This document shows positions 2,931 through 40,912 of a stretch of 64,000 nt of DNA, piece after piece. Each line of letters begins with the position of its first letter. Position 1 is the first letter of the stretch. Source of the DNA: Bdellovibrionales bacterium (lineage in GTDB: Bacteria; Bdellovibrionota; Bdellovibrionia; Bdellovibrionales; JAUICD01); contig OZ241914.1 in NCBI GenBank assembly GCA_965203875.1, forward strand, positions 333,209 to 397,208. Reading direction: 5' to 3'. The notes beneath the pieces were generated by a model that made no database searches, was not told the DNA's origin, and saw nothing but the letters and a program-made list of their open reading frames with translations. Position numbers and translations under genes: made by a program.

Positions 2931-3406
2931 TATTCAACCTTAAAATTTTTGATAAAGTTATCAAATTTATTTTTGGCCTCTATTATTGTGCTAGGCGAAC
3001 CCACCAGCATTATGCTGTAATTGCAATTTTTCTTTATAAATACCAACAGGTCTATTTGTCGTTTAACATCATTTAATCCAGTTAATAATGTGGATCTTAT
3101 AGTAGGAACTTCGTTGTATGTTAATGTGACTTCCTTCGATGATTCGATATTTGATAGGCCGGAAGCATAATTATTAAAAACTGTTTTTAGATCTGTACTT
3201 GCTTTTTTGCTGCATTCTGTGTGGAAGGAAATAATATTGCCGTGGTTATCTTTCCATGACTTATCGGCAAAACTTGACTTAAACTGCTTAAAGCCAGCGG
3301 GCTCTGTAAAACTAATTTGCTTTGAGGTTTTAAATTTATTTGGGTCTAAGCTTACGGATATACAGCCCGAGATTAGGCATAGGAAAATTATTAATATAAA
3401 TCTCAT
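2930..3406 (-). CDS. Lipoprotein of unknown function, first gene of the mla operon
   Basis: Signal peptide with lipobox MRFILIIFLCLISGC. Its stop overlaps the mlaE ATG (TAATG). Confidence 0.7.
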   Translation of the reverse strand: MRFILIIFLCLISGCISVSLDPNKFKTSKQISFTEPAGFKQFKSSFADKSWKDNHGNIISFHTECSKKASTDLKTVFNNYASGLSNIESSKEVTLTYNEVPTIRSTLLTGLNDVKRQIDLLVFIKKNCNYSIMLVGSPSTIIEAKNKFDNFIKNFKVE

Positions 3407-3706: not shown

Positions 3707-4705
3707 CTATCTTGAATATCTACAATGGTTGTCTGATGAGAATATGCTTCCTCTAGCCATTTGTTTGTTGGCAAATGAGATACTCACTGTCGTGTTGTTA
3801 CAGTCTTCCAAATCTTCTGGAGTACCTCTTACTCTGACTTTGAAATTGGCAGTTCTTTCTGAGAATAACTCATATATTATTTCAAATTCCCTACCATCAT
3901 TTACTCTTGTAAATCTGCCCTCTTGAATAATCCAAGGTTCTAGGTCATGAAGATGAGTCATATCGTTATGCCATATGTATGCGTCTGTTTCTGCATAGGA
4001 ATCCTGTGTTGGACTATGGTCTAGAAATATATTTAATCCCAATCTTAAATTTTCTACCGCTCTTCTACAGGACTGACTTCCAATAACAAATTGTGCGTGC
4101 AATCCACTCCATCTAGTGTTAGCACACACCCCTAGAAGTTCTAAAAAGTTATCAAATACATCTTTGTTTGTGATTCTTATTGTCTCTCTTCCACTTGGAT
4201 TTGCTGTTGTAAGCGACATTCCATTCCAACTACTTCCTACAAACTTTCCGCTATTGTCACATCCATATCTGTGTTGTGCGCTTGTATAATTGTTGTCATA
4301 TCGCCCATCTCTATTGCCATAATTCTGTCCATAACCATTCCTATAATCATAGTTTTGTCCATAGTTATTCCTATTACCGTAGTTCTGCCCATAACCATTT
4401 CTATTATCGTAATTTTGACCGTAACGGTTTTGTTGACCCGGTGACTGATTATAGGATCCTCGTCCTCTGTTGTTGTTTTTATAATTTTGGCAATAATCTC
4501 CACCGTAAAACGGACCAACATATCTGCTACCCTGCCTTCCACAGTTGGTAACACTCATCGCCAAGATAGCGGCAGCTACCACAAAGTAGGTTATGTTGAG
4601 TTTATTTGCAAATTTACTACGGCTTGAGGTAGGTGCTGATCTACCAGATGCTAATTTTGCTGACTTTTTAGCTTTTAACTTAGTTTTTAACCTTCTGAAT
4701 CCCAT
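3707..4705 (-). CDS. Membrane-anchored or secreted protein with an Asn/Gly/Tyr/Gln-rich decapeptide repeat region and a Cys-containing C-terminal domain, unknown function
   Basis: 332 aa. Basic N-terminus, hydrophobic segment YFVVAAAILAMSVTNC, then RYGQNYDNRNGYGQNYGNRNNYGQNYDYRNGYGQNYGNRDGRYDNNY, then a roughly 190-aa non-repetitive domain. Confidence 0.7.
   Translation of the reverse strand: MGFRRLKTKLKAKKSAKLASGRSAPTSSRSKFANKLNITYFVVAAAILAMSVTNCGRQGSRYVGPFYGGDYCQNYKNNNRGRGSYNQSPGQQNRYGQNYDNRNGYGQNYGNRNNYGQNYDYRNGYGQNYGNRDGRYDNNYTSAQHRYGCDNSGKFVGSSWNGMSLTTANPSGRETIRITNKDVFDNFLELLGVCANTRWSGLHAQFVIGSQSCRRAVENLRLGLNIFLDHSPTQDSYAETDAYIWHNDMTHLHDLEPWIIQEGRFTRVNDGREFEIIYELFSERTANFKVRVRGTPEDLEDCNNTTVSISFANKQMARGSIFSSDNHCRYSR
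4286..4432 (-). repeat. Imperfect 30-nt tandem repeats encoding (N/D)(R/Y)RNGYGQNYG decapeptides
   Basis: About 5 successive YGQNY units are visible in the protein, and 30-nt periodicity is visible in the DNA. Confidence 0.85.
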
Positions 4706-4745: not shown

Positions 4746-5471
4746 TTAAGCCTCTTTTTTAGGTGGAATTTTGAAAAATCTATTGTTTACAAATGCTGCT
4801 AAGCCAAATAATACAGCCAATACACTAACTAAGGTTGAAAAATAATAGTCTCCTCTATAATCTCCTCTCAAACTTTCTATCCATATCCTGCTAATACCGT
4901 ACATGATTAAATAGGCAAAAAAACGGCCTTCTACCTTATTTTTTTCCATATACAAAATTATTGTCATTATTAAAAAACCCGAAAATGAGGAGTATAACTG
5001 CGTGGGATGAATGCTTACATCGCCTTTAGTAATTGCAAAAATGCTAGAAGTTTGTTTTCCAAAACAGCATCCGGCCAGAAAGCATCCTAGCCTTCCCAGC
5101 CCATAGCCTAAAGGTATAACAGGTGCAAATAAATTCAAAAAAATAGAGATTTTTTGCTTCCTTAGGGCCAAAAATCCCCAGCCTGCTATCAAGGCAAATA
5201 TAAATCCTCCATAGAATACAAAACCGCCCTGATATATTTTTAGAATATTGAGAGGATTTTCGATATAGTATACAGGATATTCTATTATTGCATGAGATAT
5301 TCTTGCACCAATCAATCCAGAAACTATTAATACTAAAGATAAATCTAGAGCATCTTTTGCAAGATTAATCTTTTTAGATCTTCGGTATACCCATACTATG
5401 CATATACATAAGCTTATAGACATTACCAACAGGTAGGAAGAAAGATGTAGAGAGCTTAAAATGGGTGCCAC
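4746..5471 (-). CDS. Prolipoprotein diacylglyceryl transferase paralog (divergent, Cys-substituted signature)
   Basis: Polytopic, 241 aa. GLGRLGCFLAGCCFGK aligns to the Lgt signature GRxGNFxNxE, and HPTQLYS is conserved. A GTG start follows the TAA of the upstream lgt directly. Confidence 0.7.
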   Translation of the reverse strand: MAPILSSLHLSSYLLVMSISLCICIVWVYRRSKKINLAKDALDLSLVLIVSGLIGARISHAIIEYPVYYIENPLNILKIYQGGFVFYGGFIFALIAGWGFLALRKQKISIFLNLFAPVIPLGYGLGRLGCFLAGCCFGKQTSSIFAITKGDVSIHPTQLYSSFSGFLIMTIILYMEKNKVEGRFFAYLIMYGISRIWIESLRGDYRGDYYFSTLVSVLAVLFGLAAFVNNRFFKIPPKKEA

Positions 5472-6311
5472 TTAATTAATACGTTCCTCTATAGGATGTT
5501 TAATTCTAATATGTAGCAAAATTACTCCTGACAAAATCATGATGAAACATAATATTTGACCCATACTAAAATATTGTAGAAAAAACCCAAGCTGATTATC
5601 CGGCTGTCTGAAGAATTCTATGACAAATCTAAAAACTCCATAGATTATGAGATATGAAGTAGATATTATTCCTGTTCTTAGCCACTTGTTACTTTTTGAA
5701 CTCTTAAAAAATCCTTTTTTAATTTCACTTTTTTCTATTATTACTAAGATAAGGAATATCAATATTCCTTCCGATAAAGCTTGATATATTTGAGAAGGGT
5801 GCCTTGGCATACTGTCCACCATGGGGAAAACTACCGCCCAGGGAACATCTGTAACTCTACCTACCAATTCTCCGTTGATAAAATTACCAACTCTTCCTAA
5901 GGCTATTCCAATACAAGCTGCAATAACTACGTTGTCCATGATATGAAAGAATCCGACATTTAACTTTTTAGCCACCAGCACACTGCTAACAATAAAACCT
6001 ATAGCAGCTCCGTGATACGATAGTCCTCCTTTCCAAACAGCAAATATCTCTAGAGGATTTTGTATGTAATTCCAGTAGTCATATACAAATACATATATTA
6101 GCCTTGCACCTACAATCATACCAATCATCAAATAAGTAATAAGCAGTCCAATTTGGTCAGGATTTAGAGCGAACTTTGATTTTTTCCATCTGCTTACAAG
6201 AATTAAATATCCTATGAAAAATCCCAGTACATACATCAACCCATACCATCTGATCTGAATAAATCCGAATTTTATAAGAGTAGGATCTAAATCGTGTACA
6301 AAATATTGCAT
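5472..6311 (-). CDS. lgt: Prolipoprotein diacylglyceryl transferase
   Basis: Canonical GRVGNFINGELVGR signature, HPSQIYQALSEG, GGLSYHGAAIG; 279 aa polytopic. Confidence 0.9.
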   Translation of the reverse strand: MQYFVHDLDPTLIKFGFIQIRWYGLMYVLGFFIGYLILVSRWKKSKFALNPDQIGLLITYLMIGMIVGARLIYVFVYDYWNYIQNPLEIFAVWKGGLSYHGAAIGFIVSSVLVAKKLNVGFFHIMDNVVIAACIGIALGRVGNFINGELVGRVTDVPWAVVFPMVDSMPRHPSQIYQALSEGILIFLILVIIEKSEIKKGFFKSSKSNKWLRTGIISTSYLIIYGVFRFVIEFFRQPDNQLGFFLQYFSMGQILCFIMILSGVILLHIRIKHPIEERIN

Positions 6312-19113: not shown

Positions 19114-20553
19114 ATGTATTTCAAAGATCTAAATCTTTCAGATGAATTATTTCAAGGCATTACTTCAAATGGCTTCGAGGAGTGTACTCCTATACAGGCT
19201 GCTACCATCCCAGACTGTTTAAAAGGCAAAGATATATCAGGGCTTGCTCAGACTGGCACTGGCAAAACTGCTGCATTTTTGGTTCCTTTGATGGAGAGGG
19301 TTTTTATGGGAAAGCTTGGAAAAAATGGGTTTTCCAATTGGCAGAAAGGTCAATTTTGTCTGATTATGGTCCCAACAAGAGAGCTTGCAGAGCAAGTATA
19401 CCAAGATTTTTACTCTTTTAAGGGTGCTACAGTTCTGGATGCTGTCCAAATCTATGGCGGCACCACTTATGACAGACAAAACAAAATGATCAAACAGGGG
19501 GTTGAATTTATTATAAGTACCCCTGGTAGACTTATCGATTTGTATAAATCTCATTCTTTAGATCTCAGACAATGTAGGGCAATTGTTTTTGATGAAGCTG
19601 ACAAAATGTTTGATATGGGATTCAAAGATGACATGCAATTTTTATTGCACAGAATTCCTAGAAATAGACAACTTATGTTTTTTAGCGCAACCATGGATTT
19701 TTCTGTTATCAACATGGCTTATAAGTTTGGGGCATCACCTATAGAAATAGATCTAAGCAAAAAGCACGTAAGAACACAAAATGTAGATGACTACATATAC
19801 CATATAGGAGAATCACAAAAACCACAGTATCTACTGTCTGTGTTGAACAAACTTAATCCTAAACAGACAATAGTATTTAGTAACTTCAAGCACAAAATTG
19901 AAGTGCTGGAAATGTTTTTAAATAAAAATGGCATTACTTCAACTGGTATTTCTAGTCTTTTGACACAGCAGCAGCGTAAAAGAGTCATGGATCAGTTTAG
20001 AAACCACCCAGATTTTAATGTGCTGGTAGCAACTGATGTGGCAGCTAGAGGATTAGACATAGAAAATGTAGATCTAGTAATTAACTATGAGCTTGCTGAT
20101 AACCCAGAAAATTATATCCATAGAATTGGAAGAACAGGTAGAGCTAAAAAAATTGGCGTTGCCTGTAGCCTGGTCTCTGATTTAGATGTTCCTAACTTAC
20201 TTAGAGTTGAAGAATACCTAGCAAGTAAACTAAAAACACAATGGCTTGAAAAATCTGATCTAATAGAAGATTTTGTAACTTTAGATAAAGTAAAACAAGA
20301 TATAGCTAAGAAAAAATATAAACCTACTAAAAAAACTAAAAAGCCTAAAACCAGACCTAAAAAGATATCTAAAAAAACATCTAAAGCAGCATCGTATAAA
20401 CCCAAACAGGTTACTAAATCTTTTGAAGATAAAAGGATAAATAAAAAGGTAAAGAAAAAAGTGAAGGTAAGAAAGGGAAGAAGTGGGAAGAGTAAAAAAG
20501 GTGTTTTGTCTTTTATTGATAGACTAAAAGGTCTGACAAAATGTTTTTATTAA
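19114..20553 (+). CDS. DEAD-box ATP-dependent RNA helicase with Lys-rich C-terminal tail
   Basis: Q motif region, AQTGTGKTAAF, VFDEADKMFDMGF, SAT, HRIGRTGRA. Confidence 0.95.
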   Translation: MYFKDLNLSDELFQGITSNGFEECTPIQAATIPDCLKGKDISGLAQTGTGKTAAFLVPLMERVFMGKLGKNGFSNWQKGQFCLIMVPTRELAEQVYQDFYSFKGATVLDAVQIYGGTTYDRQNKMIKQGVEFIISTPGRLIDLYKSHSLDLRQCRAIVFDEADKMFDMGFKDDMQFLLHRIPRNRQLMFFSATMDFSVINMAYKFGASPIEIDLSKKHVRTQNVDDYIYHIGESQKPQYLLSVLNKLNPKQTIVFSNFKHKIEVLEMFLNKNGITSTGISSLLTQQQRKRVMDQFRNHPDFNVLVATDVAARGLDIENVDLVINYELADNPENYIHRIGRTGRAKKIGVACSLVSDLDVPNLLRVEEYLASKLKTQWLEKSDLIEDFVTLDKVKQDIAKKKYKPTKKTKKPKTRPKKISKKTSKAASYKPKQVTKSFEDKRINKKVKKKVKVRKGRSGKSKKGVLSFIDRLKGLTKCFY

Positions 20554-29128: not shown

Positions 29129-29161
29129 TTGACAAAAATTGGGGGGGGGGGGGGGTAACAT
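29129..29161 (+). promoter_or_regulatory. Candidate sigma-70 promoter TTGACA-(AAAATT+G15)-TAACAT with an overlong 21-nt spacer
   Basis: The AGTTTGACAAAAAT context is shared with the paralog promoter at 33696, where the spacer is 16 nt and lacks the G tract. Confidence 0.4.
29141..29155 (+). repeat. Homopolymeric G15 tract
   Basis: Read directly: 15 consecutive G in an AT-rich intergenic region. Confidence 0.95.
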
Positions 29162-29213: not shown

Positions 29214-30179
29214 GTGTTTTTAAGTAATTTTCTAAAATTAGGTTTGTACAAGTCATCTTGTATATTGTTTTCATGTTTGTTCTTTGTATCGTGTAATACT
29301 GTTAGTAGTAAGCCTACAGAGATTGTATCTAATGCTGGTAGTAGAAAGATTGCAAGTGCTAGTGCTGCTGCTATGGCTGTAAATTCTAGTGCTTTTTTAG
29401 CAATGCAAGCTTGTCCTGTACTGGCTAGTATTCAGTCTAGAATCCCATCATGGAGGGGTACTCCTGATCGTGATGAACATATTGGTCGAAGACTTAAGAA
29501 CTTCATTACAAATAATTACCCTGATCGTGATGAACATATTAACCGCTACAACGCAGAATACGTTATGAATATGCTACAAGAAACAGACGGTCAGGGTAGA
29601 ACCTTGCACCAGAGGCTTATGTTGGAGTTATCTTCTAATAGTGATTGTTTAAGTCGTATAGGTGATCTAAGAGAAAACATATGTTTTTACAGAGAGTATA
29701 GCGAAGCTTGCGATGCTTTGCATAAGCTTGACAAGCTAGACGGGGAAACTATTATACAAGAGTTTGAAGAGTTTGCAGGAGCTTCTATAGAGTCTATCGA
29801 TCCTAGTCAGTTAGTAGGTAAACTTGATGGGTTTATTCAAAGCAGAGGTTTGATTGCCAGATTCTTTCATAGGGAACCAGTGTTATACAAAGAACCGTCA
29901 TCACGAGAGGAAGAATTAGAACAATTAGAAGCAGAAGCGAGATCGCAGGAAATGAATTTTAGAACATCTCTTATAACAGCCCCTATAATACTGGCACTAC
30001 TGTCAGGAATACATAAGGCTGCAGCGACAACTGCTGGGGCAGCAGCAGTGGGAGCGGTGGGAACGGTAGGAGCAACAGTAGTAACACTGGCTATGGTTGG
30101 TGGTGTAGTTTGGCTTGCAACTGGTGGATTTGACAAGAGATTGAAAAATAGACTTAGACCTAGAGCAGAAAATCCATAA
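29214..30179 (+). CDS. Lipoprotein family A, copy 1: N-terminal lipobox, Cys-containing middle domain, Ala/Gly/Val-rich C-terminal membrane segment, Arg-rich tail
   Basis: GTG start 6 nt after AAGGGGG. LYKSSCILFSCLFFVSCNTVSSKPTEIV is paralogous to 33759..34568. C-terminus AAATTAGAAAVGAVGTVGATVVTLAMVGGVVWLATGG...RLRPRAENP. Confidence 0.75.
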   Translation: MFLSNFLKLGLYKSSCILFSCLFFVSCNTVSSKPTEIVSNAGSRKIASASAAAMAVNSSAFLAMQACPVLASIQSRIPSWRGTPDRDEHIGRRLKNFITNNYPDRDEHINRYNAEYVMNMLQETDGQGRTLHQRLMLELSSNSDCLSRIGDLRENICFYREYSEACDALHKLDKLDGETIIQEFEEFAGASIESIDPSQLVGKLDGFIQSRGLIARFFHREPVLYKEPSSREEELEQLEAEARSQEMNFRTSLITAPIILALLSGIHKAAATTAGAAAVGAVGTVGATVVTLAMVGGVVWLATGGFDKRLKNRLRPRAENP

Positions 30180-34637: not shown

Positions 34638-35363
34638 TCATTCATTAAAGATGCTTGGTTTAATGGTTCCTTTTAACTCAATTTTGTGCCCGTATAGGCT
34701 GCCAATATTGTCATGGTGTTGGCCATTGTCTTCGTTTGCACTATCACCACTACCATAATATAATTTGAATCCTTTTGTGAAAATATAGTTGTACAAAGCA
34801 CCCAGCTCTATGGGTCCTACATCTACGTCAATTCCTGCTCCAACTTGTCCGGCATGAGACATAGCCCATTTTTCTTGTTCTTCATTAGGTTCATTTAGTC
34901 CTATGTTGTTGAACGCTAATCCATAATCAGACGTAACATAAGGGGTCATAAAAGAAAAGATGTCATCAAAATGCCAGTTTCCTCCAACAAACCAAATAAG
35001 TTTGTTTTGATTTCCTATGTCTTCTGCCGACTCCCCAGTACCTTGAATATTATGTTTAAAATAGGTAATGCTTGTGTCAAAAGATGGGCCCTTATAGGGT
35101 TTGTACTCACTGGTTAGTGTGAACGAAGGAAGTAAAGTTTCTTTTAAGTCATATTCTCCTGCTGCTAGTGTTGAGGTTTCCCCTTGGTTTGAAACGTTGA
35201 GTTTATCGTATAGGACCGTGCCGAGTGAAAGAGCTATACTCCAACCGTAATCGTCGTAATAAAATACTCTGTCGTCATAATAGTCTCTGATTTGGGCTTT
35301 AGCATTTGATACAAAAAGGCAAATGATCAATACAGCAACCGATCTATAACCAATTTTTTTCAT
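34638..35363 (-). CDS. Small outer-membrane beta-barrel protein (OMP2), tandem paralog of OMP3
   Basis: Signal ...LFVSNAKA/QIRDYYDD. Alternating strands (WSIALSLGTVLY, LIWFVGGNWHF, GAGIDVDVGPIELGALYNY). GGAGG SD. Confidence 0.75.
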   Translation of the reverse strand: MKKIGYRSVAVLIICLFVSNAKAQIRDYYDDRVFYYDDYGWSIALSLGTVLYDKLNVSNQGETSTLAAGEYDLKETLLPSFTLTSEYKPYKGPSFDTSITYFKHNIQGTGESAEDIGNQNKLIWFVGGNWHFDDIFSFMTPYVTSDYGLAFNNIGLNEPNEEQEKWAMSHAGQVGAGIDVDVGPIELGALYNYIFTKGFKLYYGSGDSANEDNGQHHDNIGSLYGHKIELKGTIKPSIFNE

Positions 35364-35395: not shown

Positions 35396-36160
35396 CTAGT
35401 TGTTAAGGATACTTGGTTTAATGGTTCCTTTTAACTCAATTTTGTGCCCACCTAGGCTATCAAAATCAAAGCCATATCCTTTCAAAGCTGCTCCTTCGCT
35501 GTTAGGTATTTGCACTGGTGCAGGCAGTATCAGCTCTAGTTCGTATCCATTTGTTAGTACGTAGTTATACAAAAGGCCTAGCTTTACAGGGCCTACGTTT
35601 ATATCAACTCCTGCTCCAGCTTGGGTGGCCAGAGACAGTGACGAGTCGTCTAAAAGTTCCACATTTTCACTTTCAAGATTCACAAAGTTGTAGGCTAGCC
35701 CAACATCAGCAGTAACATAGGGAGTTAAACGAGAGACCACTTCATCGAAGTTATAATTTCCTCCAACAAACCAAATAAGCCTACTTGAACTACCTACATC
35801 AGTACCTTCTTCTGATAAATCGTGTGAAAAATAAGTAAGACCTGTATCAAAAGATAAGCCCATGTAAGGCTTATACTCTCCAGTCACCATAAACGACGGA
35901 AGTAGAGTTTCTTTCAATTCCAGCGTTCCTTTTGCGGAGATGTTTGACAAGGCATTGACTATAGTTGATGATGGAGCAGTCACTTCTTTGAATGAAAGAT
36001 AGTAATCTTGTTCTCCGTACAGGACAGTGCCCAGCGATAGAGCTACACTCCAACCGTAGTCATCGTAATAAAACACTCTGTCGTCATAATAGTCTCTGAT
36101 TTGGGCTTTGGCATTTGATACAAAAAGACAAACTCCCAGTAGCAACAATAACCTTTTCAT
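35396..36160 (-). CDS. Small outer-membrane beta-barrel protein (OMP3)
   Basis: MKRLLLLLGVCLFVSNAKA signal. GAGGGGG SD before the ATG at 36160. N- and C-terminal blocks are nearly identical to OMP2. Confidence 0.75.
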   Translation of the reverse strand: MKRLLLLLGVCLFVSNAKAQIRDYYDDRVFYYDDYGWSVALSLGTVLYGEQDYYLSFKEVTAPSSTIVNALSNISAKGTLELKETLLPSFMVTGEYKPYMGLSFDTGLTYFSHDLSEEGTDVGSSSRLIWFVGGNYNFDEVVSRLTPYVTADVGLAYNFVNLESENVELLDDSSLSLATQAGAGVDINVGPVKLGLLYNYVLTNGYELELILPAPVQIPNSEGAALKGYGFDFDSLGGHKIELKGTIKPSILNN

Positions 36161-36443
36161 AGATCCCCCTCTTAAGCTGCGTCCCAAAGCCAGTTTTTAC
36201 ACGATCTAATAAAAATATCAATACTAAAGCTTGCCAGCTACGTTGTGCAGTGCTCCAGTTTTGTAGCTGTGCACCTAAGCTAGTTGAGCCATTTAATAAA
36301 ATCTAAAAAACTTACGAAACTACTAAGATCATGCAGCCGAAGGGCAATAAAATTCTTGTTACTAAAAAATACAGCTCAGGCGTAAGCCGGCCAACCTGTG
36401 ACCTCTATGCTCTTGTAAGGATAAACAGCTTCGTACGAAGACT

Positions 36444-37148
36444 CTAGTAAACAAAGTTGACTTCAATTCTGTGGTTATTACTACCTTTAAATTCTGTATC
36501 CAAGTTATTCAAGTATTCTGGTCTGTGTGGCAATAACCTGGTGTAACTATATCCCAAGCCAAGTTTTGCAACCTTAGCATCAATATTCCACCCAAGTCCT
36601 AGTGAAAAAAATGGCACATATATTTTATCATCTGTTGCCAACACTTTTCCTTGTGCACGTGTTGTAGCATCCTCAAGCTGAACACTAGCTGTTCTACCTT
36701 GCCAAAGTTTAATATGATTATGCAAAAACCCAGCTCTGACTGTTAGTTTTGGTGCAAAAGGAATCTTTTCAAAATAAACAGCACCTCCTAGTGAAAATGG
36801 TGCCAACTTTCTTTCTCCTTCCAAGCAGCCGTTACCACTTGTACAAGGAGAATCTTCTGTCGACTCTACTTCATAAACTAGCTCTTGACTATACGATGCT
36901 AGAAACGGAAACTCCAAGTCCAATGAAAGAGGGTGTTGTTCAAATTTATAGCCAAATCTTAAAACAGCAGGAGTATATATCGTTTGAGCTTTATATTTTC
37001 TTTCGATACCAGAGCCAACATCTTCTGTTGTCTGCGTACCAAATAGCATCACACCAAAAGATGGTTCCAGGAAAAATCCAGCATGTGTGTCATCAGTTTG
37101 CGACCATACAACCGCAGGGATAAAAAGTACCAAAAACGCCCATCTCAT
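36444..37148 (-). CDS. Small outer-membrane beta-barrel protein (OMP4)
   Basis: Signal MRWAFLVLFIPAVVWS, C-terminal HRIEVNFVY, AAGGGGG SD. Confidence 0.7.
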   Translation of the reverse strand: MRWAFLVLFIPAVVWSQTDDTHAGFFLEPSFGVMLFGTQTTEDVGSGIERKYKAQTIYTPAVLRFGYKFEQHPLSLDLEFPFLASYSQELVYEVESTEDSPCTSGNGCLEGERKLAPFSLGGAVYFEKIPFAPKLTVRAGFLHNHIKLWQGRTASVQLEDATTRAQGKVLATDDKIYVPFFSLGLGWNIDAKVAKLGLGYSYTRLLPHRPEYLNNLDTEFKGSNNHRIEVNFVY

Positions 37149-39360: not shown

Positions 39361-39532
39361 TAATCTTGTCATTATAAAATGGCACCTAATTGTTGGGTAG
39401 CTATATGATAGATGAAGCTAGCAGGCTCTAAACAGTACTTAAGGATACTTTTATTGCTCGATGCATAATTACATCATAAGACAATCTAACATACTGAAAA
39501 TACTGTGAAAACGCCTCGGATATTGTGAAAAG

Positions 39533-39676
39533 CAACAATATTACCCAATATTAGCCAATATTACCCAATATTAGCCAATATTACCCAATATTAGCCAATA
39601 TTACCCAATATTAGCCAATATTACCCAATATTAGCCAGTATTACCCAATATTAGCCAATATTACCCAATATTAGCT
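39533..39676. repeat. Tandem array of about 14 decamers alternating TTACCCAATA / TTAGCCAATA (6.5+ copies of a 20-mer)
   Basis: Read directly. Perfect copies except one A>G at 39638. The array ends 28 nt before the start codon of the ATPase gene. Confidence 0.95.
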
Positions 39677-39703
39677 TTAAATACCCCACAGTTTTGGAGT
39701 AGA

Positions 39704-40912
39704 GTGTATTCTATGAAGTACAATCCTTTTAAACCGGGCAGTGTAGTCCATCCAGGGATGTTTGTTGGTAGGATGCGTGAAATACGGCTTATTGAAAAAT
39801 GCCTATTTCAGACAAAAAACGGCAACCCGCAAAACTTCCTAATCCAGGGAGAAAGAGGTATTGGTAAGTCCTCTTTAGTATTGTATGCCAAGCACTTGGC
39901 TGCAGGAAGGTTAACAGGCTCCTATAATTTTGTAGTCATTAAAATTGATTTAGAACCTCATTATAAATTTTTAGATATTATCAAAAAATTAATTTCCGAA
40001 GCTAAAATAGAATTAAGCAGCAACAACATTTTTGAGTCGATTAAAACTCAAGCTACTGACACTTTATCGAAGTTCCAAACAACACATTTGTCTTTTTCTG
40101 AAAAAGAAACTCCGGATAATATGTTAGTGAGTGAAATTTCAAACGTGTTAAAAAAAATTAGCGAATTAAAAAAAGTCGATGGAGTTTTAGTTTTGATTGA
40201 CGAGGCGGACAAACCTAGCTCTGGTTCTGAGCTGGGTACCTTTTTTAAACTATTAACAGAAAGACTTGTCTCTATAGAATGTAATAATATATGCATAGGT
40301 GCCGCAGGACTTTTTGAAACTATAGACAAATTGCGAAAAAGTCATGAATCTAGTTTAAGGCTATTTCATATTTTAAGCATGAGCGTCCTAATTGACAACG
40401 AAAGAGAGCAAGTTATTGAAGCTGGTCTAAAAGAAGCTAATGAAAAAAACAATTTTCAAACCAAAATTGCCAAAGATGCAAAAAAATTAATAGCTGAACT
40501 GTCAGAAGGATACCCTTATTTTCTACAACAATTTGCTTACAACTCGTTTGAGGCAGACGACGATCGCTTGATAGATAAAGGCGATATTCATAAAGGAATT
40601 TATGATGAAAATACAGGGGCTTTGAAACAGTTAGGGGAAAAGCTTTTCAATAATATATTTTATAACAAAATTGGCTCTGATAACCATAGAAAAGTTTTAC
40701 AATGTATGGCTACACAAAAGCAAAAATGGATTGTTCGATCTAACATATTAAAAAATTCTGGTCTAAAAGCCACTACAGTGAACAATGCAATTAAAGCGTT
40801 GAAAGAAAAACAGATCATTTTTGATAATCCTAATAAAAAAGGGGAATATCGATTGCCATCCACATCTTTTGCTACATGGGTACTTGCTTTTACTCAAAAC
40901 TCACAACAATAA
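39704..40912 (+). CDS. P-loop AAA+/ORC-Cdc6-like (archaeal-ATPase/COG1672-type) NTPase with C-terminal winged-helix domain
   Basis: NPFKPGSVV.PGMFVGRMREI, Walker A GERGIGKSS, Walker B VLVLIDEADK, C-terminal KALKEKQIIFDNPNKKGEYRL wHTH-like. The start may be GTG at 39704 or ATG at 39713. Confidence 0.7.
   Translation: MYSMKYNPFKPGSVVHPGMFVGRMREIRLIEKCLFQTKNGNPQNFLIQGERGIGKSSLVLYAKHLAAGRLTGSYNFVVIKIDLEPHYKFLDIIKKLISEAKIELSSNNIFESIKTQATDTLSKFQTTHLSFSEKETPDNMLVSEISNVLKKISELKKVDGVLVLIDEADKPSSGSELGTFFKLLTERLVSIECNNICIGAAGLFETIDKLRKSHESSLRLFHILSMSVLIDNEREQVIEAGLKEANEKNNFQTKIAKDAKKLIAELSEGYPYFLQQFAYNSFEADDDRLIDKGDIHKGIYDENTGALKQLGEKLFNNIFYNKIGSDNHRKVLQCMATQKQKWIVRSNILKNSGLKATTVNNAIKALKEKQIIFDNPNKKGEYRLPSTSFATWVLAFTQNSQQ

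Follow-up and report, generated by a model that had tools for sequence, protein, structure and literature searches.

The DNA considered here is a stretch of 64,000 nucleotides from the genome of a Bdellovibrionales bacterium (contig OZ241914.1; this whole stretch is referred to below as the window), in which an array of 14 head-to-tail decamers lies directly ahead of a gene for an ORC/Cdc6-like AAA+ ATPase with a C-terminal winged helix. Based on comparison of this locus with its homologues and on a structural model of the protein, the array is probably the cognate platform of the adjacent ATPase, and the gene and the array together would form one two-part module, which is accessory in nature and spreads horizontally; we assign a probability of about 0.6 to this interpretation. 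The array looks like the functional target of the protein, and the tight linkage of the two would be kept because their specificity co-evolves. The features of the window on which the argument depends are the following.

39536..39675, + strand: decamer array, 14 head-to-tail units of CAATATTA[C/G]C (from the sequence and Tandem Repeats Finder, TRF)
39536..39675, + strand: core of the array family, A-T-T-A-[C/G]-C, one per 10 bp
39713..40912, + strand: gene for the ORC/Cdc6-like AAA+ (AAA_16) ATPase, 399 amino acids (aa), C-terminal winged helix
39848..39871, + strand: Walker A motif GERGIGKS, aa 46-53 (22-sequence alignment)
40190..40213, + strand: Walker B motif VLIDEADK, aa 160-167 (22-sequence alignment)
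40349..40366, + strand: SSLRLF motif, aa 213-218 (alignment and AlphaFold2 (AF2) model)
40505..40534, + strand: lid-domain motif EGYPYFLQQF, aa 265-274 (alignment)
40772..40801, + strand: predicted recognition helix of the winged helix, TTVNNAIKAL, aa 354-363 (AF2 helix 353-365)
40781-40783, + strand: codon of N357

The preliminary description of this DNA had reported about 14 decamers upstream of an ATPase gene, and both the sequence and TRF place such an array at 39536-39675. TRF describes it with a period of 20 (7.0 copies, 98% matches) and also with a period of 10 (13.8 copies, 89% matches). The C/G position alternates without exception along the 14 decamers, and the sole other departure is the A>G change at 39638, which had been noted before and which gives CAGTATTACC. 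The string CCAATATTAS occurs 12 times in the window, always within the array, compared to 0.5 occurrences expected from shuffles of the window, none of which (0 of 100) reached 12. In the locus L001 of the survey described below, with which the window shares 99.5% identity along 12.6 kb, 13 decamers follow one another as C C G C G C G [AG]C G C G C G. The number and order of the units thus differ between these close strains, and because the array of L001 has 13 decamers and starts with C-C, the change occurs in steps of 10 bp. Logan contigs from sequencing runs with the window genome are broken at the array, and neither junctions nor signs of excised circles are seen in them. It had been suggested from the strict alternation that the true unit is 20 bp. 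The alternation is present in the window, but the unit in the family as a whole is 10 bp, and an alternating 20-bp super-unit is seen only in the window, L085, L086, L117 and L124; a 20-bp super-period was therefore rejected as a feature of the family. We read the C/G alternation as reflecting the amplification history of a two-unit block rather than a functional unit.

The association of the array with the gene was surveyed in 170 loci from genomes, metagenomes and assemblies, where the pairing was counted on non-redundant loci with both flanks and an array was counted if it had a 10-bp period and lay within 320 bp of the gene. According to the identity of the encoded protein to that of the window, the results were as follows.

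Identity of at least 50%: 10 loci, 10 with an array
Identity of 40-50%: 62 loci, 30 with an array (7 upstream, 23 downstream)
Identity of 30-40%: 46 loci, 2 with an array
Identity below 30%: 17 loci, 1 with an array

Within 320 bp of the gene 46 arrays were found in 96 kb, versus 2 in 514 kb of other flanking DNA, which is a difference in density of about 120-fold; the array is not a widespread satellite unlinked to this gene. One of the two distant arrays is found 307 bp past the gene, as the second array of its locus. Under a stricter threshold there were 17 arrays near the gene versus 0 in 382 kb, and the signal was present at lag 10 only, not at lags 8, 9 or 11-13, with a few lag-7 matches in two loci. 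Since the signal is confined to lag 10 across arrays that differ from each other, the exact period of one helical turn is conserved even though the sequence is not. In relatives without an array at the orthologous site the gene is missing as well, so that no case was found there of the gene being conserved and the array absent.

The array-bearing members of the family belong to the Bdellovibrionota, Bacteroidota and Alphaproteobacteria; in the first two groups the array is upstream of the gene, and in the Alphaproteobacteria it is mostly downstream. In members from the Acidobacteriota, Nitrospirota and other groups mostly no array was detected, the family comprising about 150 clusters at 50% identity (E<=1e-30). 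In the window and its clade the array precedes the start codon by 2-90 nt (2-40 nt in all but L086), and orthologues that are 52-68% identical are found in unrelated genomic contexts, each with a 10-bp array just ahead of the start codon. The context thus differs while the pairing persists, viz. after fcl and facing recG in the window, after rpoD and a tRNA in L003, after an RCC1-repeat gene in L002 and after pnp in six Rhodobacterales loci. Arrays of individual relatives include the following.

L003: (ATTATTACCC)x5, after rpoD and the tRNA
L002: seven ATTATTA[G/C]n units, after the RCC1-repeat gene
L084: seven to eight units of GATTATTACY
L085: about 33 units, CGATTATTAG and CTATTATTAC alternating
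L086: eight units
L088: 13 units of YTYCAGTAGC
L004: units of CCAGTAGCCT
L059: units of AAAAGTAGCG

The Bacteroidota homologues L011, L014, L027 and L049 (about 44% identity) bear arrays of the GTTATTAGCA type, which end 1-3 nt ahead of the ATG. The arrays of Alphaproteobacteria are usually located just past the stop codon, as in L006, L008, L010, L015, L016, L017, L019, L020, L022 and L023, and further arrays of this kind are present in L025 (24 units), L026, L047, L053 (18 units) and L054. Relatives differ in their number of units, from 3 up to about 33. The orientation is that of the gene in about 16 of 18 upstream arrays and in about 18 of 28 downstream arrays, and an array inverted relative to the gene is seen in L026, L129, L123, L131 and L132. 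Two loci have more than one array. In L017 (4302-4435) two arrays stand back to back past one gene, GCCTGCATTA x7 followed by CGCTTATTAC x4-5, both with an ATTA[G/C]C core. In L129 arrays flank the gene on both sides (1334-1458 and 3053-3191), both of them reverse-oriented, and their units CAATATTAGC and CATTATTAGC are identical to the decamer of the window, the protein being merely 44% identical.

When the arrays are oriented by their common TA[G/C]C, nearly all of them fit the pattern A-x-T-A-[G/C]-C, and the base x co-varies with the residue aligned to N357 of the window protein (referred to as residue 357), which is the fourth of the recognition-helix motif T-T-V-N-N-A-L.

Residue 357 is N, S or T: x=T in 23 loci, x=G in 1, x=C in 4
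Residue 357 is D (once G, once A): x=G in 10 loci, x=C in 2, T or mixed in 3-4

The combination of D with G is found in at least four groups, each of which is nearer to relatives with N and T than to the other groups with D.

L004 and L088: mutual identity 67%, identity to the window clade 53-55%
L010, L015 and L020: 64-65% identical to L026
L024: 53% identical to L016
L123, L131, L130, L132 and L006

We also considered whether this pattern could result from the exchange of a block consisting of the winged-helix domain plus the array. However, the exchange of such a block fails to explain it, because the winged helix of L004 has the C-terminal tail of the window clade. The pairings seen agree with the usual preferences of side chains for bases, namely asparagine for A:T and aspartate for cytosine. 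Taken together with the predicted fold, the co-variation makes a strong comparative case for direct readout of the array by the protein, and the earlier proposal that the array is a binding array of the adjacent protein appears very likely in view of this co-variation of core and recognition helix and of the co-occurrence of gene and array across phyla. The core is not constant along one array of 18 units (L053, 4291-4488): CATTAGC gives way to CACTAGC and, distally, to CAGTAGC, which provides a natural bridge between the two main motif types.

The protein encoded next to the array had been described as a P-loop NTPase with a C-terminal winged helix and as ORC-like, and both descriptions agree with the results obtained here. 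Its match to the Pfam domain AAA_16 (PF13191; residues 17-179) is above the gathering cut-off (43.7 versus 32.6 bits, E 5.4e-11). In an alignment of 22 sequences, G46-K52 and S54 of the Walker A motif are invariant and S53 is nearly so, D163 and D166 of Walker B are invariant and E164 is nearly so, and the SSLR(L/I)F motif is conserved with R216 nearly invariant; based on its position, we take this motif to be a candidate counterpart of the box VII S-R-[LF] arginine finger of Orc1/Cdc6-type AAA+ proteins. The lid motif, which served as a search pattern, resembles the GxP motif of STAND/AP-ATPases, and its residues G266, Y267, P268, F270, Q272 and F274 do not vary. The AF2 model, built with 22 homologues (predicted local distance difference test, pLDDT, 86; predicted template modelling score, pTM, 0.82), consists of an AAA+ base, a lid and a C-terminal winged helix (residues 320-395 approximately), which is the three-domain fold seen in Orc1/Cdc6. 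The best Foldseek matches of the model in the PDB extend over the full length and are archaeal Cdc6/Orc1 proteins (1fnn, 1w5s/1w5t, 2qby and 2v1u; E 3e-9 to 2.5e-8), with the top six, inclusive of 1fnn, 1w5s/1w5t and 2qby, having E of 3e-9 to 6e-9 over 420-450 aligned columns; 2qby and 2v1u are DNA-bound structures. RuvB, eukaryotic ORC, RFC and CED-4 are among the lower-ranked matches, with CED-4 and NLRs at E of about 1e-6. However, the match to the curated Orc1/Cdc6 family TIGR02928 of NCBIfam covers only the N-terminal 84 residues and at 19 bits is far below the cut-off of 181.3, and a sequence search of the PDB with the window protein retrieved no relatives, Orc/Cdc6 proteins included. 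Hence, by its modelled fold the protein resembles DNA-binding AAA+ proteins of the Orc1/Cdc6 type, whereas by sequence it lies outside that family. It ends right after the winged helix, without a sensor domain, and nSTAND1 and NACHT are far under their cut-offs. In PADLOC-DB 2.0 the best match is SspC (E 5.6e-6, in the P-loop region only), and no membership in a defence system is indicated.

Based on these results, a mechanism can be proposed in which the recognition helix of the winged helix would read one A-T-T-A-[C/G]-C core per decamer, and Asn357 would be opposite the base pair that immediately precedes the TA on its 5' side. Head-to-tail sites repeated once per helical turn would place successive protomers on one face of the DNA and in the same orientation, and due to this geometry the AAA+ domains, whose Walker A and B motifs are intact and which have a candidate arginine finger, could contact each other and assemble cooperatively in an ATP-dependent manner. 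In the window the array separates the probable promoter region from the ATG, and its occupancy should therefore also throttle the expression of the gene. Autoregulation is thus a plausible additional consequence in the lineage of the window, a reasonable one since the array is just ahead of the start and the spacers of orthologues hold -10-like hexamers. The role as an operator, which had been raised in the preliminary description, should however not be interpreted as the conserved function of the array: most arrays of Alphaproteobacteria are past the stop codon, and because arrays lie on either side of the gene and some are inverted, promoter occlusion cannot be the role that is common to the family. 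The module, which has no recombinase gene, would spread in the form of a compact cassette (about 1.3-2.5 kb), probably by recombination anchored in conserved neighbouring genes.

The presence of the module is patchy. In the window its neighbours are housekeeping genes (gmd, fcl, recG, sucAB-lpd, recA and alaS), and the RecG protein has its best named relatives, at about 53%, in Bdellovibrio and Pseudobdellovibrionaceae. In two relatives whose recG is 74-75% identical, the lpd-sucB-sucA/recG synteny is kept, and outer-membrane-protein paralogues follow directly after recG, with no ATPase, array, gmd or fcl. A comparison of the neighbours in all 170 loci revealed no conserved partner gene, helicase or loader, partition motor (ParM/ParA) or SMC-type gene, the largest common neighbour being pnp in the six Rhodobacterales loci. 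Direct repeats of the target DNA bracket the gene and the array in ten array-bearing loci, with lengths of 19-688 nt and identities of 83-100%.

L003: 27 nt, 93%, 3' end of tRNA-Met
L010: 208 nt, 97%, 3' end of pnp; 2745-2963 / 4414-4632
L020: 224 nt, 92%, 3' end of pnp; 2692-2915 / 4303-4526
L025: 52 nt, 98%, end of tRNA-Arg
L027: 113 nt, 93%
L047: 109 nt, 83%
L049: 595-688 nt, 89-90%
L084: 114 nt, 100%, endonuclease gene fragment
L014: 28-34 nt, 91-96%; 2903-2938 / 4234-4273
L011: 19-22 nt, 91-95%; 138-211 / 1739-1772

In L014 the unique segment between the repeats is exactly the array plus the gene, in L020 the array abuts the right-hand repeat, and no recombinase is present inside the bracketed segments. 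Repeats that vary in length and are imperfectly identical, together with anchor genes that are conserved, would fit either illegitimate recombination facilitated by homology or a single crossover in which a homologous segment was carried along, and they do not appear to fit a transposase or integrase. L010 and L020, which are Paracoccaceae-type genomes, have the end of pnp (210-224 nt) duplicated on both sides of the cassette with 92-97% identity; in four further Rhodobacterales loci the cassette follows pnp with no second copy of it, and their arrays are of differing types. In the Bacteroidota loci L014 and L011 the bracketing repeats are themselves tandem repeats of 7-8 bp (AACCTTAA-like and AGCCAAC-like). 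The association with tRNAs is only about two-fold, 9 of 18 tRNAs (in 8 of the 170 loci) lying within 600-700 bp. In L006 (2787-2860), RNA reads of other Rhodopseudomonas palustris strains match the tRNA-Gly only and diverge exactly at its 3' end, from which it follows that these strains lack the BisB18 cassette at this tRNA. In L086 (5227-6266 and 1-474), whose protein is 55% identical, a downstream gene that weakly matches AbiEi_4 has a 4-nt overlap with the ATPase gene, and a ScoMcrA-type HNH gene is found nearby, which hints at a defence-island context.

Close homologues were absent from the collections of plasmids and phages that were searched. Among the 72,556 plasmids of PLSDB only relatives with an identity of <=28% were found, and among the 50,697 phages of INPHARED only those with <=25%, none in either reaching 40%. 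Seven contigs of IMG/VR encode relatives with 37-44% identity, and a short array accompanies the gene only in L172. The exact unit of the window was not found in the viral contigs that were scanned for it, and the looser pattern TTATTA[G/C]C x3 was present in 9 viral contigs where no homologue of the gene could be detected. Because short look-alike arrays occur in these contigs, matches of three units should not by themselves be interpreted as diagnostic of the module. A phage-like IMG/VR contig with high GC content (L205) has a long 10-bp array of 15 or more GATTATTAGCA-like units (about 5440-5600) between genes that are 1 kb apart, with no homologue of the ATPase within the 10.5 kb examined.

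Several observations weigh against the interpretation of the array as the platform of the adjacent protein. Half of the homologues with 40-50% identity, and nearly all of those below 40%, are without a regular array; the protein therefore either can exist alone or uses dispersed sites that our detector misses. There are exceptions to the co-variation, viz. N with C (L110, L125 and L136), N with G (L102), D with T (L130) and a mixed array (L133); further, the orientation of the motif had to be picked by means of the TA[G/C]C core, and the tree used is a simple neighbour-joining tree. Arrays that are past the stop codon or inverted cannot serve for autoregulation by promoter occlusion, which can hold at most for the lineages with upstream arrays. 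Lastly, 34 Angstrom per site may be tight for protomers of 45 kDa, and the occupancy could be one protomer per 10 bp or, in its place, one per 20 bp.

If the protein were an initiator and the decamers its iterons, then the module would be a minimal replication unit, either a secondary or cryptic chromosomal origin or the remnant of a small episome integrated in the manner of Campbell, and the array-gene and gene-array layouts would derive from one circle by circular permutation. The predicted fold corresponds to that of the archaeal origin-binding Orc1/Cdc6 proteins, whose genes likewise adjoin their sites, the winged helix has weak matches to the iteron-binding domains of the lambda O type (0.069 in Pfam, 0.016 in NCBIfam and 0.0018 in PHROG), and the seven 20-bp super-units of the window resemble iterons in their dimensions. 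The location of the array on either side of the gene, the flanking repeats of variable length, as expected after a single crossover in which a homologous segment was carried along, and the rapid diversification of specificity, as in incompatibility determinants, can be understood in the same manner. However, no DnaA box lies closer than 3.6 kb to the array, nor does an AT-rich unwinding element adjoin it, the GC content there (0.31-0.37) being that of the background; homologues of at least 40% identity are absent from the above collections of plasmids and phages, no small circular contigs are found among the 170 loci, no helicase or loader gene is linked, and the unit of the family is 10 bp, not 17-22 bp. 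Moreover, the bacterial hosts replicate in a DnaA-dependent manner, and we know of no route leading from an ORC-like protein to the loading of DnaB. We consider an initiator function unlikely for these reasons, and we are also sceptical, to a somewhat greater extent, of the view that the protein-array complex is itself the functional end product and a chromosomal landmark, which would act in cis as a roadblock to replication or transcription in the manner of Tus/Ter and RTP/Ter (where the gene also adjoins a binding site) or would nucleate the organisation of the chromosome as ParB/parS and ParR/parC do. This view would account for the tight linkage in cis whatever the side or orientation, for the single array per locus with none elsewhere in the 514 kb of flanks, for numbers of units beyond the needs of an operator (about 33 in L085, 24 in L025 and 18 in L053) and for the six Rhodobacterales loci being fixed after pnp while their specificities diverge. 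However, no motor or SMC-type gene is linked, and an accessory, patchy module would be unusual for core functions of the chromosome. A broader formulation, which we likewise consider rather unlikely, is that of a new class of minimal selfish or domesticated bacterial elements, each made up of one ORC/Cdc6-like AAA+ protein and one array of one-turn sites, in which a protein-array filament would be the active entity (as a cryptic origin or mini-replicon, or as a heritable landmark or roadblock), spreading across phyla without a recombinase and diversifying in specificity like an incompatibility determinant.

The remaining explanations do not require the array to be a DNA target of the protein, and each of them appears highly improbable. 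If the decamers were a contingency repeat, as had also been suggested earlier, then slippage would alter the spacing between promoter and gene and thereby switch expression, with no need of protein binding. The difference of 14 versus 13 decamers, in differing order, between 99.5%-identical genomes and the range in copy number among relatives are as one would expect from such a repeat; however, of the 30 loci with 40-50% identity that bear an array, 23 have it past the stop codon, and several arrays are inverted. A period that is always exactly 10 bp despite differing sequences and a core that co-varies with a DNA-reading residue speak further against it, since slippage repeats have no reason to keep either, and the family comparison has thus largely refuted this explanation. 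There is similarly very little to be said for the repeats acting in RNA, as a structured or protein-bound 5' or 3' untranslated region. The array of the Bacteroidota loci L011 and L014 is probably transcribed, because it abuts the ATG, and the array of the window folds better than its shuffles (z = -5.2). However, the latter signal stems from the AATATT palindrome of the window unit, orthologous arrays are unstructured (0 kcal/mol in L003, z +1.5 in L084 and z -0.2 in L088), Rfam gives only far-sub-threshold miRNA noise (28 bits versus gathering cut-offs of 99-100), inverted arrays would yield a different RNA, and the co-varying residue is located in the recognition helix of a winged helix. 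The array could also be a neutral satellite that hitch-hikes as a functionless by-product of recombination or insertion of the cassette, and it is indeed often located at the border of the cassette, right beside one of the flanking repeats (with a gap of 0-6 nt in L014 and L020), besides the three-unit matches in viral contigs lacking the gene. This too is very unlikely given that the period is exactly one helical turn in every lineage, that the TA[G/C]C core is conserved from the Bdellovibrionota to the Bacteroidota and Alphaproteobacteria, that the base x co-varies with residue 357 and that arrays are 120-fold enriched beside the gene.

If the array is the cognate platform of the ATPase, as we favour, then the module has partial counterparts in several known systems. 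With archaeal Orc1/Cdc6 and the origin recognition boxes (ORBs) it shares the predicted AAA+ base, lid and winged helix, the intact ATPase motifs and, as predicted here, a gene located beside its sites. However, the window protein scores only 19 bits versus 181 in TIGR02928, the hosts are bacterial and the gene is accessory and mobile; ORBs are few and longer sites, usually inverted around an unwinding element, whereas the family of the window has 3 to about 33 direct 10-bp repeats arranged head-to-tail, with no unwinding element found. ORC/Cdc6-type initiators are regarded as archaeal and eukaryotic. The iteron replicons (lambda O/ori-lambda; pi, RepA and TrfA) likewise have helically phased direct repeats beside the gene of a winged-helix binder, they autorepress and their specificity diversifies rapidly, and the seven super-units of the window add to the likeness. 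However, Rep proteins consist of tandem winged helices and lack an AAA+ ATPase, iterons of 17-22 bp are accompanied by DnaA boxes and an AT-rich region, and the family of the window is chromosomal, with a unit of 10 bp and no members of at least 40% identity in plasmid collections. In type II partition by ParR/parC there are ten 11-bp repeats in R1 and 20-bp repeats in pSK41, and these repeats of about one turn likewise stand upstream of the operon, parC being both the platform of a cooperative protein filament and an operator; ParR, however, is a small ribbon-helix-helix protein that needs ParM, whereas the module described here has a lone gene for an AAA+ protein with a winged helix and no plasmid context. 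By analogy, DnaA on the phased low-affinity sites of oriC and MalT on the MalT boxes may be compared, as in both an ATP-bound ATPase (of the initiator clade in DnaA, of the STAND type in MalT) with a DNA-binding domain extends along sites of the same orientation about one turn apart; they differ in their DNA-binding domains (domain IV of DnaA, a LuxR-type helix-turn-helix in MalT), in sites that are not perfect tandem repeats and in being core genes with known outputs. Orc1-2 of Sulfolobus is a non-initiator Orc1 paralogue that acts as a DNA-damage-responsive regulator of transcription (PMC9738581). It provides a precedent for an Orc1-type protein with AAA+, initiator-specific motif (ISM) and winged helix serving as a sequence-specific regulator instead of an initiator; as described there, it differs in being an archaeal global regulator with dispersed promoter sites, and not a bacterial cassette with a tandem array by its own gene.

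None of these systems (Orc1/ORB, Orc1-2, Rep/iteron, ParR/parC and DnaA/MalT) unites a stand-alone bacterial ORC-like ATPase, 10-bp arrays on either side of the gene, co-variation of one residue with one base and spread without a recombinase. The bacterial relatives are annotated just as "ATP-binding protein", and full-text literature searches, inclusive of searches with the decamer sequences, yielded no description of the protein family or of the arrays. The array-bearing members thus offer a natural and compact system for the assembly of AAA+ proteins on sites spaced by one turn, a specificity code of one residue and one base (N357 with T, D with G or C) that would be readable and testable by mutagenesis, and a mobile single-gene cassette as an object of study. 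If an activity as origin, roadblock or partition site proves to be true, then the module will bear on the relation of ORC-like machinery to the biology of bacterial chromosomes; if the protein is merely an autoregulated regulator, then it will still represent a new family of orthogonal protein/operator pairs.

The sequences on both sides of the array in the window have the following features.

39500..39531, + strand: two related 12-mers, ATACTGTGAAAA (39500-39511) and ATATTGTGAAAA (39520-39531), 20 bp apart (from the sequence)
39676..39712, + strand: spacer of 37 nt between array and start (from the sequence)
39678-39683 and 39700-39705, + strand: -10-like hexamers TAAATA and TAGAGT, putative promoter elements
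39696-39699, + strand: GGAG ahead of the start codon

The two 12-mers, which had been noticed earlier, are present just upstream of the array but absent from the orthologous loci L002, L003 and L084-L088. They could hold a weak -35-like TTGTGA (39524-39529), 17 nt ahead of the AATATT in the first repeats; a promoter scan called nothing at the 12-mers (39500-39531), and it found no sigma-70-like site within the repeats, in agreement with the earlier statement that sigma-70 hexamers are lacking there. The equivalent spacer of several orthologues holds a -10-like hexamer, one example being TGGTATAAT in L088. The distance of 28 nt previously given between the array and the gene applies to the earliest possible start of the open reading frame (ORF), GTG at 39704, whereas the start conserved among homologues (M-K/R-Y-N-P-F), which is also the one annotated in L001, is ATG at 39713, 37 nt past the array.

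Elsewhere in the window, three ORFs on the - strand between 34638 and 37148 (34638-35363, 35396-36187 and 36444-37148) encode predicted secreted beta-barrel-like proteins. The first two are clear paralogues, and the second and third have no Pfam match. Homologues of the paralogues are located directly after recG in L170 and L171, and the window and L001 differ by about 42 bp between 36187 and 36444. A homopolymer of 15 G residues (29141-29155, detected by TRF) is found about 60 nt upstream of the ORF 29214-30179 and is a candidate slippage-prone tract. Dense A-rich tandem repeats of 9-20 bp (20306-20491) at the 3' end of the DEAD-box helicase gene 19114-20553 probably encode a lysine-rich low-complexity tail, and a 30-bp tandem repeat (4311-4425; 3.8 copies, 74% matches) in the ORF 3707-4705 on the - strand presumably corresponds to a 10-residue repeat in the protein.

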